A stretch of DNA of 64,000 bases from IMG/VR virus record IMGVR_UViG_3300045988_094266; one strand, given 5' to 3'. The stretch is from a virus. Position 1 is the stretch's first letter. Every line of letters starts with the position of its first letter. Positions 20,130 through 24,713 of the stretch are shown piece after piece. Position numbers and translations under genes: made by a program. Below the pieces are notes generated by a model. It was not told where the DNA came from, searched no databases, and saw only the letters and a list, made by a program, of their open reading frames with translations.

Positions 20130-20156
20130 AAATAAAGAGAGCTGTAAAGCTCTCTT
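20130..20156 (-). terminator. Intrinsic terminator hairpin (aagagagct-gtaa-agctctctt)
   Basis: Inverted repeat right after the NadE stop. Confidence 0.45.
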
Positions 20157-20881
20157 TAAGAAAAGAATGGACAAGTTGGCATAGGGGAAATCTTATGTAA
20201 ATTTCTCTTATGTCTTTGTTCAATGTTTTTATATATCTCATATGGAGGAGTAATACCATTAAGTAGGAAATTATCTAGGACATCATAAGAAAATCCTAAA
20301 TTTTCCTCATCTGTTAAACCGCTTAATCCATCCTCTGGAGGCTTTTCAATGAAGTTCTTTGGCAATCCAAGCTCAATACCAATTTCTTTAACTTCCGTGG
20401 CAGTATAATTAGAGAGAATAGAAAAATCTCCTGCTGCATCTCCAAATTTAGTAGAATAGCCTACATAGTCTTCACTTCTATTGCAAGTATTCACAACTCT
20501 TCCATGACGGCTCGCGGCGATTGCATAAAGGATATTCATTCTTACTCTTGCTGGAACATTACTTGTAACTTGCGGCTGAATTCTAATATCATTGGGCAAA
20601 GACAAGAAAATCTCCTGACAAGCTGAACCAATATTGATGTTGTAATGCTCTGTAATTTCGAGGTAATCAATTACCTCATTAGAAACATCAATATCATATT
20701 GGAATCCCTGTGGCATTTGTACGGCAATTACTCGATTCGGGCCAAGAGCCTTACAAAGAAGAGCCGCAGCCACTGTAGAATCTTTGCCGCCAGAAATCCC
20801 GATAACAGCTTTACACTCCGGCCCGTTTTTTATGAAATACTCTTTAATCCAATCTATAATTTTAGTAACCGTATTAGTCAT
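20156..20881 (-). CDS. nadE: NH3-dependent NAD+ synthetase (NadE)
   Basis: 241 aa with the SGGKDS PP-loop and the NadE-typical SEDYVGYSTKFGD motif. Confidence 0.7.
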   Translation of the reverse strand: MTNTVTKIIDWIKEYFIKNGPECKAVIGISGGKDSTVAAALLCKALGPNRVIAVQMPQGFQYDIDVSNEVIDYLEITEHYNINIGSACQEIFLSLPNDIRIQPQVTSNVPARVRMNILYAIAASRHGRVVNTCNRSEDYVGYSTKFGDAAGDFSILSNYTATEVKEIGIELGLPKNFIEKPPEDGLSGLTDEENLGFSYDVLDNFLLNGITPPYEIYKNIEQRHKRNLHKISPMPTCPFFS

Positions 20882-22467
20882 AGAACTTCTCCCATCAATC
20901 TCTCTTTAATAGTTTCGATAGTCTCTACGCTCTCCGTACAGAAACTTCCATTCTTGACTTTAAATTTCATTACATTGTTCTTATATCCAATGGATTCTTC
21001 AAGAGTAAGATTTTCTACTAAAGAATAATCGCCATTCTCCTCTTTAAAAATTGCAACACATCCACGAGGAGACTTTTTCCCAGGGTCGGTTTTAGGCATT
21101 TTATAAATCTGAATTTCATCATTGCCGAGGATACAATCTGTAGCTTTAATAGCATAGCCTCTAGTATCACGAGTTACATACTGATAAGTATAAGCTCCAA
21201 TTCCAAAACATAGATTGGATACTGAGATATTATTTCTAACGCACCAAGAGCAAACTTTTTCAGTAATCTCTGGAGTAATGGCATCTCCATAAATCATACG
21301 AATATAAGAAGGAAGAATAAAATATCCTTTAGTATTCAATTCACCGCCAAAGATTTCTTTTAGAAGATTTAAAGTTCCTATAAACTCAGGAGAACCGGGT
21401 ACAGCATCTGGGTCGCCGCAGATAATCTTTACAGGATCTCCGCTATCAGGTCGAACGGAGAAACATCCATCTCTTGCTGCAATAACATCGTGCAACATAG
21501 GAAGAACCTTAGATACAATACCCCAATAATCATATGTATCAGATACATAGGTCATAGTTCCTGTAGGTTGCACTTCTGTGCAAAGATAATTAATAAAAAG
21601 CATTTCTGCAATAAGGTTAATATCCCAATTATCAAAAGCGGCCTTAGAGAAAAGATAACGCTCAGTTTCAGTTAAATCTCCATTAGTAATCTTCTGCTTC
21701 ATCCAAGCTACACCTTGTTCAACAACAGAGTGCTCAAGAGAAGGAGTTCCCATCATGGGAGGATTATTCTCAAGATCTGCTCCATAGTATTTTTCAAGGA
21801 GAAGGTTAGAACCAATGGTTGCAGTTCTATCAAAAGAAAGAGCATGGGCAGCACCTGAGATATAGCCTGCCTCAAGACTTGTATGTCCGCGCAGAGAAAA
21901 GTCGCCACACATATGTGGAAGAGCAGACATATCGTCGCAGCTAGTCTTGACATAAGGCTCAATTAACTTGCGGCGATAGAAAGCGGTAGTGGCAGAAGTC
22001 GAGGGGAGCCAGTTATTAGCGCTCCACTGATCTTCGATAAATTGCGGAAGCCACGCAAAATTTTGATGATTAGAAAAAATTACATGATCTGGAATCCCGA
22101 CGGGAAGAAGCGTACCCTCTGGAACTCCCATGATAGAAATAGGTAAATAACCAAGTTTATGTAATTCTTTAAACTTGGTAAAATCCGCATAATCAGGATG
22201 GAAAGTATTTTTAATTACATGATTCCACTCCTGTTCAAGAAGCTCAACTGACTGATCAAAGAACTCTGTCTGCCAAAATTCAAGTAGTTTCTGGATGGTA
22301 TATTGATGACCAAAGACCACTGTCTTAGGGCAATTTGGATGATGCTTATAACTGCGAGCTGTCCAAGTAGAATAAACCATAGAAGCAGACTTCGGCTGCA
22401 TCTTAATAGCATGACCAACTTTGTAGTAGTCAGCGGCAAACATTGGAGCTACATCAAAGAAACTCAT
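20878..22467 (-). CDS. Nicotinamide/nicotinate phosphoribosyltransferase family protein (NAMPT/Namat/NadV-like)
   Basis: 529 aa. The N-terminal region (ADYYKVGHAIKMQPK) resembles NAMPT (DSYKVTHYKQYP) and the length fits the type II PRTase family. Confidence 0.6.
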   Translation of the reverse strand: MSFFDVAPMFAADYYKVGHAIKMQPKSASMVYSTWTARSYKHHPNCPKTVVFGHQYTIQKLLEFWQTEFFDQSVELLEQEWNHVIKNTFHPDYADFTKFKELHKLGYLPISIMGVPEGTLLPVGIPDHVIFSNHQNFAWLPQFIEDQWSANNWLPSTSATTAFYRRKLIEPYVKTSCDDMSALPHMCGDFSLRGHTSLEAGYISGAAHALSFDRTATIGSNLLLEKYYGADLENNPPMMGTPSLEHSVVEQGVAWMKQKITNGDLTETERYLFSKAAFDNWDINLIAEMLFINYLCTEVQPTGTMTYVSDTYDYWGIVSKVLPMLHDVIAARDGCFSVRPDSGDPVKIICGDPDAVPGSPEFIGTLNLLKEIFGGELNTKGYFILPSYIRMIYGDAITPEITEKVCSWCVRNNISVSNLCFGIGAYTYQYVTRDTRGYAIKATDCILGNDEIQIYKMPKTDPGKKSPRGCVAIFKEENGDYSLVENLTLEESIGYKNNVMKFKVKNGSFCTESVETIETIKERLMGEVL

Positions 22468-22526
22468 AAAATCTTCCTTTCCTTATTTCTTAAATATATT
22501 ATATCATATATTTTTATAAAAATAAA

Positions 22527-22550
22527 AAGCCCTCTTTATGAGGGCTTTTA
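22527..22550 (-). terminator. Intrinsic terminator hairpin (aaagccctc-tttatga-gagggcttt)
   Basis: Inverted repeat after the 22551..22919 gene. Confidence 0.45.
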
Positions 22551-22919: not shown

Positions 22920-23233
22920 TTTAACAACCCTCCAACAACAGCACTTACAATCTTCATATCTGCTTTACCTTTAAGCTCCATAGAAATAGATTTCATAAGC
23001 GCACCACGATTTGTTTTGAGGAGATCAATACCTGCGGTTCCAGCAATCTCTCTTACTTTTGTTTCAATTTCTGCCTTATCAGTAATAAGCTGAGGGGCAC
23101 ACATCTTTACTACCTTCATATCCTCTTGATATTGATGCAGTTTTTCAGGATAACTAGCAGGACAGGTATCAATCATTTCTTGTACTGTCTTTTGATATTT
23201 GATAAGGGTTTCGTCAACTAGTTGTTCAGTCAA
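22916..23233 (-). CDS. Hypothetical protein
   Basis: 105-aa ORF that overlaps its neighbours by 4 nt (operon-like). Confidence 0.25.
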   Translation of the reverse strand: MTEQLVDETLIKYQKTVQEMIDTCPASYPEKLHQYQEDMKVVKMCAPQLITDKAEIETKVREIAGTAGIDLLKTNRGALMKSISMELKGKADMKIVSAVVGGLLK

Positions 23234-23361
23234 TTCAACTCTTCCTTTTGGAGTAATGGCTGCTTTCTAACACGCATCAATCATGTCAGAAAGTACCCTC
23301 TTTGTATTTGTATTTCCATTTTTAAGAGCCATAATCTTTAACTCTTGAAGTTTCTCAATAG

Positions 23362-24180
23362 TCATCTTACAATCTCTACCTTTCCTCTAATATCCCACTC
23401 TGTCTTGAAGATGCTATCAGAAGTGAAGATTTTCTTTACAATATCTTGATTATACATATCGCCCTCAATCATGGTATGCTCTGCATGAGTTACATACAGA
23501 TAAATATTCTTTGCACCAGCTTCTTTGAGGGCATTTGCAGCATGATAGAAAGTTCCACCTCGGGAACAAATATCATCTACAATAAGGACATTATTATCCT
23601 TAACAACTTCACTATTCATTAACTGCAAACCAAGAATTTTTCCAGTAGACCAATCCCTTTTCTTAATTCCAAAAGCATAAGGAAGATTAATAGGTGGAAC
23701 AGAATATCTCTTCATCGCTCCTTCATCCGGGAAAAATAGGATAGGAATTTCTCCTTCATATTTCTCAGTTCTCTTAATAGCCTCTTTGATTTCTCCAATT
23801 GGACTAAGATCAATAACTCTATCAAGTAGAGCTAACGATACATTAGAATGAGCATCACGCACAATAACTTTATCAAAATGAAGGCTATTAATTACTTGAC
23901 AGAAGTATTTTAGGGTAAATACATCTTCAAGTTCTTGAACTCGATCCATTCTTGCATGAGGAATATATGGCATATCTAGGTTTACAGGAAAATCTTCGAA
24001 ATGCCCCTTAACACAAATGAGAGTAAATAATTCTGCATCATTCTCGTACTCCCAAACAATCGTATCATAATCGAAGTAGTTAGGAGGCATATTAATATGC
24101 AGCGTACTATCTGGAAAATGATTTTGTTCAATTATGTCTGTCCAATGACTGCGTGTATTAAGCAAAGTAATCATACCCAA
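23362..24180 (-). CDS. Ribose-phosphate pyrophosphokinase-like protein (PRPP synthetase family; ADPR-PP synthetase Adps candidate)
   Basis: 272 aa with a C-terminal PRPP-binding motif VLIVDDICSRGGT. Confidence 0.5.
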   Translation of the reverse strand: MGMITLLNTRSHWTDIIEQNHFPDSTLHINMPPNYFDYDTIVWEYENDAELFTLICVKGHFEDFPVNLDMPYIPHARMDRVQELEDVFTLKYFCQVINSLHFDKVIVRDAHSNVSLALLDRVIDLSPIGEIKEAIKRTEKYEGEIPILFFPDEGAMKRYSVPPINLPYAFGIKKRDWSTGKILGLQLMNSEVVKDNNVLIVDDICSRGGTFYHAANALKEAGAKNIYLYVTHAEHTMIEGDMYNQDIVKKIFTSDSIFKTEWDIRGKVEIVR

Positions 24181-24713
24181 TCCTCCACATCAATTTGTTG
24201 AGAAGAAAAAATTTCAAGGGCGGCCTCATGTGCCTTTTTGGTAACTCCAGCACAGGCTCTACTATGAACTACGATTCTAGTATTTGGCATCGCCGCGCGA
24301 AGCATAACCGTATTAGCCATAACACAAACGTCGGTACAGAATCCGCAAATATGAATTTCTACTTCCTCTTGATTCTTCATCTTTAAAGAATTATAAACTT
24401 CATTTACCATATCTGTACTGCCAAAAGTATCTTTCTCGTAAAAATTATACTTGTTACCAAGAGCAACAAGAACTCGAGAATCCATGCACCAGCCGGGACT
24501 AGTCTGTTCACAATGTTTTACTGGCAGTTTCTTACCCTCAAGGGTTTCAAAATAATCGTCTCCATGTGTATCCATAGTACAAACGATATTATCCCACTCA
24601 TGGTTTTGAATTAAACTTACGATATTGGGAACTGCGGCATCCGCTGTCTTAGACCCCAGAGAGCCAGTAACAAAATCATTCTGCGCATCTACAATCACAA
24701 GAAGTCTATACAT
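24171..24713 (-). CDS. pncA: Isochorismatase-family cysteine hydrolase (nicotinamidase PncA-like)
   Basis: 180 aa. The N-terminal LLVIVDAQNDF and a catalytic-Cys region are typical of PncA. Confidence 0.55.
   Translation of the reverse strand: MYRLLVIVDAQNDFVTGSLGSKTADAAVPNIVSLIQNHEWDNIVCTMDTHGDDYFETLEGKKLPVKHCEQTSPGWCMDSRVLVALGNKYNFYEKDTFGSTDMVNEVYNSLKMKNQEEVEIHICGFCTDVCVMANTVMLRAAMPNTRIVVHSRACAGVTKKAHEAALEIFSSQQIDVEDWV

Follow-up and report, generated by a model that had tools for sequence, protein, structure and literature searches.

The NARP1 pathway consists of two enzymes, Adps and Namat (Osterman et al., bioRxiv 10.1101/2024.02.11.579819; structures in PMC12774641 and PMC13586617). 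The structure of the SPbetaL1 Namat was solved in PMC12774641, which also reported bacterial homologues of NARP1. NARP1-AP adds a Macro-domain phosphatase, Adpp (bioRxiv 10.64898/2026.01.28.702374), while NARP2, of the Vibrio phage KVP40 type, combines Nampt with Nmnat. Among bacterial operons, those for the Preiss-Handler pathway are arranged pncA-pncB-nadD-nadE, for example under NrtR in Clostridium acetobutylicum, and nrtR-prs-nadV operons occur in Shewanella, Acinetobacter and others (both PMC2330246). The sequence analysed here (the window) was a stretch of 64,000 nucleotides, IMG/VR virus record IMGVR_UViG_3300045988_094266, which contained clustered genes for a nicotinamidase-type hydrolase, an Adps-type PRPP-synthetase homologue, a Namat/NAMPT-family transferase and an NH3-dependent NAD synthetase. 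These four enzymes of a gut phage most likely rebuild NAD+ from its remains after bacterial NAD-destroying defences have acted, and apparently do so through nicotinic acid rather than nicotinamide. In the literature searched, nothing was found that links NARP1 to a nicotinamidase, NadE or NaAD, nor any description of a nicotinate-based route for rebuilding NAD+.

The cassette occupied positions 20156–24713 of the minus strand, with all four enzyme ORFs present. A promoter-like site (24860..24888, minus strand; TTGACG-17-TATTAT, 10/12 matches) preceded the PncA-like gene (24171..24713, 180 aa); it was considered weak because such sites were rarer in the window than in shuffles. The Adps-type gene (23362..24174) most likely begins with the ATG at 24174, which has GGAGGA 6 nt upstream, rather than with the TTG at 24180 given in the ORF list; counted from this ATG, it encoded 270 aa and overlapped the PncA stop by 4 nt. 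The NadE gene (20156..20881, 241 aa) likewise overlapped the stop of the transferase gene (20878..22467, 529 aa) by 4 nt. The earlier note had described the Adps-type and transferase genes as standing side by side, but two small genes, also on the minus strand, lay between them. The first (22916..23365) would encode 149 aa if an in-frame TAG at 23267–23269 were read as an amino acid; relatives L180 and L181 had CAG at this point, and the joined product matched Pfam YqeY (1.2e-08). The second (22551..22919) encoded a small hydrophobic, membrane protein of 95–122 aa, for which Pfam and PHROG searches gave no match. The YqeY-like gene was confined to the closest relatives and the membrane-protein gene was conserved only in L001–L003 and L180–L181; both are interpreted as insertions specific to this phage lineage. 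Two terminator-like hairpins were identified on the same strand by consensus match only, one just past the NadE stop (20133..20158; 11-bp stem and T-run), the other between the membrane-protein and transferase genes (22525..22549; 10-bp stem with five GC pairs, T-run). The latter may divide the cassette into two transcription units.

The Prs-like protein, which contains LIVDDICSRGGTF, matched phrog_619 (2e-65, 222 bits), the same PHROG as the validated Adps proteins of SPbetaL1 (248 bits) and ICP1 (287 bits). It was 37% identical to SPbetaL1 Adps and 26% identical to E. coli Prs; an HMM built from 118 Namat-adjacent Adps homologues scored it at 233.8 bits, compared with 132.7 for E. coli Prs. 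Like the two validated Adps proteins, it stayed below all the cutoffs of the NCBIfam Prs models. The Adps motifs DDIC..GGTF, KxRDxxTGxI, HSxV and PDxGAxKRY were all present, whereas E. coli Prs differs at each, and equivalents were found for ICP1 R87, H121, D161, K185, D212 and D213. Its length is that of Adps, while E. coli Prs has 315 aa. By these comparisons the protein is classed as Adps-type and not as a bona fide Prs.

The transferase matched phrog_448 (3e-131), and its best solved relative was 9w5x/9w5w (7e-95, as against ~1e-39 for human NAMPT). The PDB row for 9w5x is labelled only as nicotinamide phosphoribosyltransferase, but its alignment agreed with the SPbetaL1 Namat translated from OQ921341.1. 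Residues of the catalytic core and adenine clamp were retained (D13, Y15, F190, R193, H246, R339, D341 and GIGAYTYQYVTRD). The clamp motif read GAYTYQYVTRD, compared with a published Namat signature of GSX(T/S)X(Q/N)X(N/V)TRD (PMC12774641); Nampt proteins of NARP2 type did not contain the signature and read GMGGGLLQQLDRD and GTGSWGFKNSSRD instead. An insert of ~30 aa followed the catalytic His, and the protein scored 347.6 bits on NF006629, below the cutoff of 405 that validated Namats exceeded (594 and 488). On its best match and clamp motif, the transferase is assigned to the NAMPT/Namat family and not to PncB. The earlier note had assigned the two proteins to these same families, and the placements it named as contrary to its reading, with Prs and with PncB respectively, were not those found.

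The pyridine pocket of the transferase was remodelled. Human NAMPT H191, G217, D219 and A244, equivalent to H187, G213, D215 and A242 of SPbetaL1 Namat, were replaced by G188, R214, A216 and S243; the residue that recognises the amide of nicotinamide, an Asp in SPbetaL1 (D215) and human NAMPT (D219), was therefore Ala in the phage enzyme. Three of these changes (H187 to G, S or C; D215 to A; A242 to S) separated all 93 sequences with this Ala from all 134 Asp-type sequences, and the phage-type clade additionally had R or K in place of G213. Asp219 is described as setting the substrate specificity of NAMPT (PMC7096376); human D219A loses activity and D219S switches substrate affinity (listed in PMC4919578), SPbetaL1 D215A reduces NAD+ synthesis ~8-fold, and the guanidinium of human G217R makes a basic patch adjoining this pocket (PMC4186856). 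These published mutants fit a switch of specificity in the Ala-type enzymes. That R214 and S243 may help to hold a carboxylate is proposed from their position only. The earlier note had taken the enzyme for a canonical nicotinamide-ADPR transferase; with its amide-reading residues replaced, and the changes found clade-wide, this description is not upheld by the alignments.

The PncA-like protein matched Pfam Isochorismatase (1.6e-18). Its nine PDB matches were nearly all nicotinamidases or pyrazinamidases, among them P. horikoshii 1ILW, M. tuberculosis 3PL1, A. baumannii 2WT9 and yeast 2H0R, although the top two were labelled isochorismatase. It scored only 21 bits on the NCBIfam PncA model, where the cutoff is 174. 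When aligned with 1ILW, D9, K88 and C130 matched what is presumed to be the catalytic triad of PncA, and D48, H50 and H67 its presumed metal site. The single-domain NadE contained the motif GISGGKDS, matched Pfam NAD_synthase (3.2e-46) and passed NCBIfam TIGR00552 (156.5 bits, cutoff 63.65). Its PDB matches were NH3-dependent NAD synthetases, including 3FIU (1e-31) and 2E18 (3e-30); F. tularensis NadE (3FIU) scored 113.5 bits and P. horikoshii NadE 108.5 bits.

The neighbourhood of the transferase gene (~5–10 kb) was surveyed in ~240 phage and bacterial loci, from collections not de-duplicated against each other. PncA and/or NadE adjoined the gene in 52 of the 53 Ala-type loci, which came from both phages and bacteria; the 187 loci of Asp, Glu or Asn type had neither. 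Linkage held in three gene orders (PncA-Adps-Namat-NadE; NrtR-Adps-PncA-Namat(-NadE); Adps-x-Namat-NadE-PncA), across which identity of the partners fell to 31–53%. Since the gene set recurs in relatives with proteins 31–70% identical, it is not a chance juxtaposition, and the PncA-like and NadE genes are genuinely linked to the pair, as had been supposed. In a neighbour-joining tree one split set all the Ala-type sequences apart; hence the pocket substitutions may go back to just one or two origins, and the counts of 52/53 and 0/187 are not independent events. NadE recurred in Ala-type loci unaccompanied by NadD, whereas canonical Preiss-Handler operons contain nadD; neither a NadD/NMNAT homologue nor an HxGH motif was found in the window or in the loci fetched. 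No Nudix, Macro or PnuC domain was found among the window ORFs covered by a scan or by existing Pfam hits; some of the small ORFs fell outside this set. Clostridium versions of the cassette adjoined an NrtR-type gene. The family assignments, conserved catalytic residues, pocket substitutions and strict gene linkage come directly from the analysis.

The Namat signature, the Adps type of its partner, the pocket changes, the gene context without NadD and the PncA triad together favour, at somewhat better than even probability, a deamidated variant of NARP1 that rebuilds NAD+ by way of nicotinate and NaAD. Every substrate and product in this scheme is predicted, as is its role against defence during infection. 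NAD-depleting defences would cleave NAD+, leaving ADP-ribose (ADPR) together with nicotinamide; the PncA-like hydrolase would convert nicotinamide to nicotinate and NH3, and the Adps-type enzyme would produce ADPR-PP and AMP from ADPR and ATP. The transferase, its amide-reading site rebuilt to accept a carboxylate, would join nicotinate and ADPR-PP directly, giving NaAD and PPi, and NadE would complete NAD+ from NaAD, ATP and NH3. Because the pocket change goes strictly together with PncA and NadE, the two appear to be required steps in a single linear pathway. The 'anti-NADase toolkit' of the earlier note thus survives as a pair from the NARP1 families with PncA and NadE linked to it, though on this reading those two are not optional extras. 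Several points weigh against the deamidated variant: the pocket substitutions may have had very few origins, the nearest solved relative of NadE is described as an NMN synthetase (PMC3376133), the PncA-like protein lies far under the curated cutoff, one outer Ala-type subgroup has lost the clamp's first aromatic residue, and removal of nicotinamide, a product inhibitor of some NADases, would bring a phage no obvious benefit.

The strongest alternative, though an unlikely one, is canonical NARP1 working from ADPR and nicotinamide as in SPbetaL1, where PncA and NadE only boost the Preiss-Handler pathway of the host. This alternative stands close to the 'toolkit' of the earlier note. It agrees with both family assignments, the retained adenine clamp and the residual activity of SPbetaL1 D215A, whose 8-fold loss is not total. 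However, it offers no explanation for an amide-reading triad that is replaced wherever the enzyme is linked to PncA/NadE but at none of the 187 unlinked loci; PncA and the transferase would also compete for nicotinamide, and host PncB and NadD would be required while the phage supplies only NadE. Less probable again is a phage Preiss-Handler pathway via PRPP, in which the Prs-like protein makes PRPP, the transferase makes NaMN, host NadD makes NaAD and NadE finishes. Use of nicotinate would suit the pocket changes equally well, Namat is still active with PRPP in vitro, and the NCBI family model is named 'nicotinate phosphoribosyltransferase', a matter of naming and not of testing. Yet the Prs-like protein passes none of the Prs models and has motifs specific to Adps, the clamp motif is conserved in the clade despite being dispensable for PRPP chemistry, NadE is never accompanied by NadD in the fetched loci, and the NrtR-type neighbour in Clostridium fits a pathway that consumes ADPR, given that ADPR releases the DNA binding of Shewanella NrtR. 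A route via NMN, in which the transferase makes NaMN, NadE acts as a Francisella-like NMN synthetase and a host adenylyltransferase yields NAD+, is very improbable: the best solved relative of NadE is described as an NMN synthetase (3FIU; PMC3376133), which leaves room for amidation at the level of NaMN, but the nearly equal P. horikoshii score indicates no specific Francisella-type affinity, the route is a detour beside a plain NAMPT, and all objections to the PRPP pathway apply here too.

As a deamidated variant, the cassette resembles NARP1 in clustering the same two protein families, in keeping the Adps motifs with the catalytic Lys and the Namat core with the adenine-clamp motif, and presumably in the logic of rebuilding NAD+ from ADPR. 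It differs in H187G, G213R, D215A and A242S (SPbetaL1 numbering), in an Ala rather than Ser as second residue of the clamp, in the ~30 aa insert, in scoring under a family cutoff that validated Namats pass, in having PncA and NadE as obligatory neighbours, and in a predicted transferase product of NaAD instead of NAD+. NARP1-AP provides a precedent for a NARP1 operon with extra enzymes that widen the usable breakdown products; in the phage, however, no Macro domain was detected among the ORFs scanned, and the extras would work on the pyridine half (PncA) and the end product (NadE) rather than on ADPR-1''-phosphate. NARP2 shares a NAMPT-family enzyme directed against NAD+ depletion, but its Nampt has no aromatic clamp motif, keeps the Asp and pairs with Nmnat without Adps, whereas the window has no NMNAT homologue. 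Many chromosomal pairs of Adps-like and Namat-like genes with an NrtR-type neighbour, of the nrtR-prs-nadV kind, were found and were all Asp-type; in contrast, the Clostridium and Oscillospiraceae operons related to the phage cassette were Ala-type with PncA and often NadE, a variant of which no mention was found in the literature searched. As in Preiss-Handler operons, the pathway of the phage cassette would start with the PncA step, end with the NadE step and use deamidated intermediates; the Adps and Namat-family pair stands in for PncB and NadD, and the predicted pathway bypasses NaMN, entering at NaAD with ADPR as the ribose-adenylate donor.

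Four open reading frames had been placed by the earlier note at 20156-20881 (nadE), 20878-22467 (a Namat/NAMPT-family transferase), 23362-24180 (a Prs-like protein) and 24171-24713 (an isochorismatase), and all were found there on the minus strand. NadE was confirmed by Pfam (NAD_synthase, 3e-46) and by TIGR00552 (156.5 bits, above its cutoff of 63.65), and the isochorismatase frame encodes an isochorismatase-family protein. The transferase (529 aa) matched PHROG 448 at 3e-131, while the Prs-like frame contains LIVDDICSRGGTF and matched PHROG 619 at 2e-65. For the Prs-like gene, the likely start codon is the ATG at 24174, not the one at 24180; this ATG has GGAGGA 6 nt upstream and a 4-nt overlap with the PncA stop, and the transferase and nadE genes likewise share a 4-nt overlap. 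The Prs-like and transferase genes had been described as lying beside each other; they do share a strand, but two small, lineage-specific genes intervene, both on the minus strand: a YqeY-like gene (22916-23365), broken by an in-frame TAG, and a gene for a small membrane protein (22551-22919). The Prs-like gene lies 894 nt upstream of the transferase gene, while in sister lineages the two are directly adjacent. Terminator-like hairpins were seen 3' of the membrane-protein gene and of nadE, although promoter and terminator scans give consensus matches only, and promoter-like sites were rarer than in shuffles.

The cassette DNA had no near-identical match among 50,697 phage records. The phage is known from metagenomes only, where its exact transferase protein occurs on contigs of up to 149.5 kb, in 280 index blocks. 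On one fetched contig (L001) the transferase and NadE are 100% identical to those of the window, while the PncA-like gene (7702-8286) is only 80% identical to 24171-24713, which suggests local mosaicism inside the cassette.

The Prs-like protein was compared with Adps, the enzyme that partners Namat in the phage NARP1 pathway. Osterman et al. recognised Adps as a clade of its own, apart from bona fide Prs, and found a Namat-family gene adjoining 97% of that clade. An Adps HMM was built from 118 Prs-like genes adjoining Asp-type Namat genes (i.e., those with aspartate at the position of D215 in Namat of the reference phage SPbetaL1); by this profile comparison, which is not a bootstrapped tree, the protein scored 233.8 bits and E. 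coli Prs 132.7. It was 37% identical to SPbetaL1 Adps and 26% identical to E. coli Prs, and fell under the cutoff of every NCBIfam Prs model (e.g., TIGR01251, 81.8 bits against 113), as do the validated Adps of SPbetaL1 (106 bits) and ICP1 (98 bits). The validated Adps proteins belong to PHROG 619 too. The protein carries the family motifs DDIC..GGTF, KxRDxxTGxI, HSxV and PDxGAxKRY, with E. coli Prs deviating from every one; its PP loop reads DDICSRGGTF, against a consensus of DDIC[DS]xGGTF for Adps and DDMIDTGGTL in E. coli Prs. The residues of Adps shown to bind ADPR and catalyse transfer (PMC13586617) are kept, and all six of R87, H121, D161, K185, D212 and D213 of ICP1 Adps are conserved. 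Profiles, motifs and residues were all Adps-type, and identity as a true PRPP synthetase was ruled out by the profile scores and motifs. The protein is predicted to convert ADPR and ATP to ADPR-PP.

Membership of the transferase in the NAMPT family, as previously claimed, was upheld: the only model matched was NF006629, and no NAPRTase model was matched. Its best solved relatives were 9w5x and 9w5w (7e-95), with human NAMPT at approximately 1e-39, and all PDB matches were NAMPT or Namat, with no NAPRTase among them. A PncB-type NAPRTase was ruled out because only NAMPT/Namat relatives were found. The 9w5x alignment agrees with SPbetaL1 Namat translated from OQ921341.1; the structure of that enzyme is reported in PMC12774641, where Namat is described as a NAMPT-like catalytic core with an adenine 'selectivity clamp'. 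The core ligands are kept (D13, Y15, F190, R193, H246, R339, D341 and G394-D395-A396), and the clamp motif, GAYTYQYVTRD, has Tyr in positions 3 and 7; the phage-type clade has Ala in place of Ser at position 2, and R40 of the clamp loop is replaced by Lys41. Two Nampt proteins of Straboviridae phages, used as NARP2-type stand-ins, have GMGGGLLQQLDRD and GTGSWGFKNSSRD at the place of the clamp; one of them comes from a Schizotequatrovirus, the genus of KVP40. By family, motif and residue evidence, therefore, the two proteins group neither with bona fide Prs nor with PncB. Judged by sequence, the two genes are an Adps and Namat-family pair.

The NARP1-like pair proposed earlier was thus borne out as to families, but residues of the pocket that reads nicotinamide have been replaced. 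In SPbetaL1 Namat, Asp215 (human NAMPT Asp219) hydrogen-bonds the amide of nicotinamide, in a pocket with Phe189, Arg192 and Ala242; its counterpart in the window protein is Ala216, and Ala242, His187 and Gly213 have become Ser243, Gly188 and Arg214. Alanine also occupies the Asp215 position in every one of the 117 full-length database sequences most closely related to the window protein. When 231 family members were aligned to one profile, three positions parted all Ala-type sequences (n = 93) from all Asp-type sequences (n = 134): H187 to G/S/C, D215 to A and A242 to S, with G213 to R/K additionally in a 53-member phage-type group. Residues contacting ribose and phosphate and those of the adenine clamp were otherwise unchanged.

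These positions, H187, G213, D215 and A242 of SPbetaL1, correspond to H191, G217, D219 and A244 of human NAMPT. There, D219A is listed as abolishing activity and D219S as switching substrate affinity, while H191R, G217R and A244M block the binding of pocket inhibitors (PMC4919578); Asp219 has been described as defining NAMPT substrate specificity (PMC7096376), and the guanidinium of G217R forms a basic patch beside the pocket (PMC4186856). The D215A mutant of SPbetaL1 Namat has approximately 8-fold less activity. In net terms, an acid has been removed, a hydroxyl added and space opened, with a positive charge added in the phage clade; these are, we infer, the changes to be expected if the substrate had switched from carboxamide to carboxylate. 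Canonical Namat forms NAD+ from nicotinamide and ADPR-PP; judged by its sequence, the transferase is unlikely to prefer nicotinamide as its base. In a neighbour-joining tree, which is not reliably rootable and so gives no count of independent Asp-to-Ala events, the 134 Asp-type sequences formed one pure clade with the Ala-type sequences across that split.

Approximately 240 loci with flanks of about 5-10 kb were fetched from viral, genome and metagenome collections and through exact-protein look-ups. PncA and/or NadE accompanied the transferase in 52 of 53 Ala-type loci and in 0 of 187 Asp-, Glu- or Asn-type loci, counts that are not de-duplicated across collections; at the sole exception, the transferase lay at the contig edge. 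Among viral contigs and three phage-collection records, all 9 Ala-type loci had both genes (Asp/Glu/Asn-type, 0 of 66); the corresponding values were 22 of 23 for genome contigs and look-ups (12 both, 9 PncA only, 1 NadE only; 0 of 59) and 16 of 16 for metagenome contigs (6 both, 6 NadE only, 4 PncA only; 0 of 62). Five further Ala-type loci all had NadE, with PncA wherever the flank reached. The co-location of PncA and NadE pointed out in the earlier note is therefore recurrent, and it takes three gene orders: PncA-Adps-Namat-NadE in this phage, its annotated relative Phass-1 and, next to ribosomal genes, an Oscillospiraceae chromosome; NrtR-Adps-PncA-Namat(-NadE) in many species of Clostridium; and Adps-x-Namat-NadE-PncA in MT835544.1. 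Identity among the partner proteins has fallen to 31-53%, and their pairwise identities covary with those of the transferase (Spearman 0.64-0.70). The pocket substitutions may go back to just one or two events, in which case the linkage counts reflect long-term retention, not many independent events. Canonical NARP1, assisted in parallel by PncA and NadE, is an unlikely explanation of this pattern; it leaves both the pocket signature and the perfect association unexplained, and PncA would compete for substrate.

The earlier note had asked whether NMNAT or Nudix genes occur elsewhere in the genome. Seeded from E. coli NadD, phmmer and jackhmmer searches detected no NadD/NMNAT in the fetched loci or the 64-kb window, the only phmmer match being insignificant (E = 0.037) and in an Asp-type locus (L118); the HxGH motif was absent from all fetched loci and from the 64-kb window of the approximately 149-kb genome, and a Pfam scan of 20 further window ORFs gave no Nudix, Macro, PnuC or NMNAT-type domain. 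A PRPP-based copy of the Preiss-Handler pathway seems to us more doubtful still, being at odds with the assignment of the Prs-like protein to Adps, with the consistent lack of NadD, and with the conservation of an adenine clamp that is dispensable for PRPP chemistry (PMC12774641).

The solved relatives of the PncA-like protein are nearly all nicotinamidases. Members of the PncA family combine an isochorismatase fold with a catalytic Asp-Lys-Cys triad and a metal site of Asp-His-His, and here D9, K88 and C130, and D48, H50 and H67, match those positions of P. horikoshii PncA (1ILW). The claim of a nicotinamidase-like enzyme thus stood as regards triad and metal site, but the curated score was not reached (21.2 bits for NF008623, against a cutoff of 174); the protein is a divergent member, so its substrate identity rests on active-site residues and gene context. 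NadE (241 aa) comprises a single NH3-dependent synthetase domain with no glutaminase domain, and has GISGGKDS for SGGxDS. A route through NMN is highly improbable, its sole hint being that the nearest solved NadE, from Francisella, is an NMN synthetase (PMC3376133); the archaeal NadE of P. horikoshii scores nearly as high.

The preferred reading combines the family memberships, the retained catalytic residues, the pocket signature and the strict linkage without NadD. The PncA-like protein would turn nicotinamide into nicotinate and Adps would turn ADPR into ADPR-PP; the transferase would then join nicotinate and ADPR-PP to give NaAD, which NadE would turn into NAD+. The NH3 released by PncA is a co-substrate of NadE, and the four reactions therefore balance on paper. 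These substrates and products, and a role against host defence, are predicted from sequence. Taken together as 'deamido-NARP1', a fourth kind of NAD+ reconstitution pathway, the reading is one to which we give roughly an even chance. If true, its central step, in which nicotinate and ADPR-PP give NaAD, would be a previously undescribed reaction, supported by a dedicated nicotinamidase and NAD synthetase. Its users would be a large clade of uncultivated phages of the human gut, TAG-recoded ones such as this phage and Phass-1 among them, while Clostridium and Oscillospiraceae would employ it, next to an NrtR-type gene, as a chromosomal operon for ADP-ribose recycling; and the change of H191/G217/D219/A244 to G/R/A/S would predict base specificity across the Namat/NAMPT family. 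The two additional genes are rare in phages: among the 50,697 phage records, Namat/Nampt homologues occurred in 2,009 and Adps-like genes in 1,495, but a NadE homologue in only 48 and a PncA-like gene in only 8, these 8 all from human gut.

Ala-type cassettes were also observed on bacterial chromosomes, in Clostridium and relatives (L092, L097-L111, L113, L128, L133 and L149) and in an Oscillospiraceae MAG (L093). An NrtR-type gene adjoins the Clostridium cassettes, and ribosomal protein genes adjoin that of the MAG; the chromosomal version suggests a housekeeping ADP-ribose recycling operon that may have been the source of the phage cassette, or the reverse. In sister Ala-type lineages, an ORF of 140-160 aa lies between transferase and NadE (L009:7575-7994, L182:2819-3259, L183:6541-7026, L184:6565-6996, L185:2464-3657); it is fused to the NadE N-terminus in L185, L188 and L264, absent from the window, and many Asp-type NARP1 loci have a member of its family between Adps and Namat. 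The ORF had no Pfam match, and its suspected identity as the Macro-domain phosphatase Adpp was unconfirmed; phage records label it phosphatase, hydrolase, HAD or phosphoheptose isomerase. An integrase-bearing element (L094/L095) has a NADAR-domain gene between the Ala-type transferase and NadE (7621-8499).

The genes neighbouring the cassette fit a putative counter-defence region. An RNA-repair-like module surrounds it (17340-20075 and 24961-29730), comprising a TAG-interrupted RNA ligase (24961-26232), a Thg1-like enzyme (18497-19363), metallophosphoesterases (17340-17903 and 19344-20075) and an AAA_33 domain protein (17900-18433), with an RlaP-like protein (a faint Pfam match) and another metallophosphoesterase upstream of the cassette; the module may counter anticodon nucleases. 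TAG appears to be read as an amino acid by this phage. There is a tRNA with anticodon CTA at 37196-37270, and single in-frame TAG codons occur in the RNA ligase (25762-25764) and YqeY-like (23267-23269) genes, where close relatives carry GAG and CAG, respectively; Phass-1 is listed in the 'Caudoviricetes code 15 clade' and likewise has a Sup-CTA tRNA. TAG is absent from the four core cassette genes, which stop at TGA or TAA. A minus-strand array of 31 tRNAs (36164-54558), with a tmRNA at 47672-47987 (tag peptide DNDYFENYLAA), coincides with a rise in GC to 0.39-0.45 at 44-54 kb, and an AAA/nSTAND3-like NTPase (43574-44587) borders the main tRNA block on its low-coordinate side. Elsewhere were found an ATP-dependent DNA ligase (5221-6324), DNA gyrase A (6615-8978) and B (8994-10880, through homology to the neighbour in relatives), a Band_7 protein (16292-17188) and an 813-aa ORF (30774-33212), whose counterpart in relatives matches MVP_shoulder and, faintly, Vault_3 in Pfam, which is unusual in phage.

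Depletion of NAD+ is a major mode of bacterial defence against phage, as in Thoeris, DSR, SIR2-HerA, SEFIR and aRES. The phage answers described in the literature searched are NARP1, NARP1-AP, NARP2 and NARP3, and structural papers exist on both NARP1 enzymes. Among top-ranked literature matches, no paper combined NARP1 with a nicotinamidase or NadE; ADPR-PP and nicotinic acid adenine dinucleotide occurred together, in the literature searched, only in an unrelated paper on tumour ectoenzymes, and a term search of four NARP papers found no mention of a nicotinate route. The annotation of Phass-1 gives a nicotinamidase, a ribose-phosphate pyrophosphokinase, a NAMPT and two hypothetical proteins, with no names or notes at pathway level. 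If the nicotinate reading holds, it adds a new step, an ADPR-PP:nicotinate transferase, whose entry at NaAD bypasses PncB and NadD; it would explain a whole 'NAMPT-like' clade that scores under the curated family cutoff, and link a phage counter-defence module to a chromosomal ADP-ribose recycling operon of gut Firmicutes. A simple sequence rule would then part nicotinamide-using from nicotinate-using members, which matters for annotating phage anti-defence genes and for choosing or engineering therapeutic phages. Preiss-Handler salvage proceeds through PncA, PncB, NadD and NadE, and its canonical operons include nadD (PMC2330246), whereas in the window neither a PncB-family NAPRTase nor NadD was found. 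NARP2 combines Nampt with a phage Nmnat and is without Adps; the 64-kb window, in contrast, has no NadD/NMNAT, and Adps is present.
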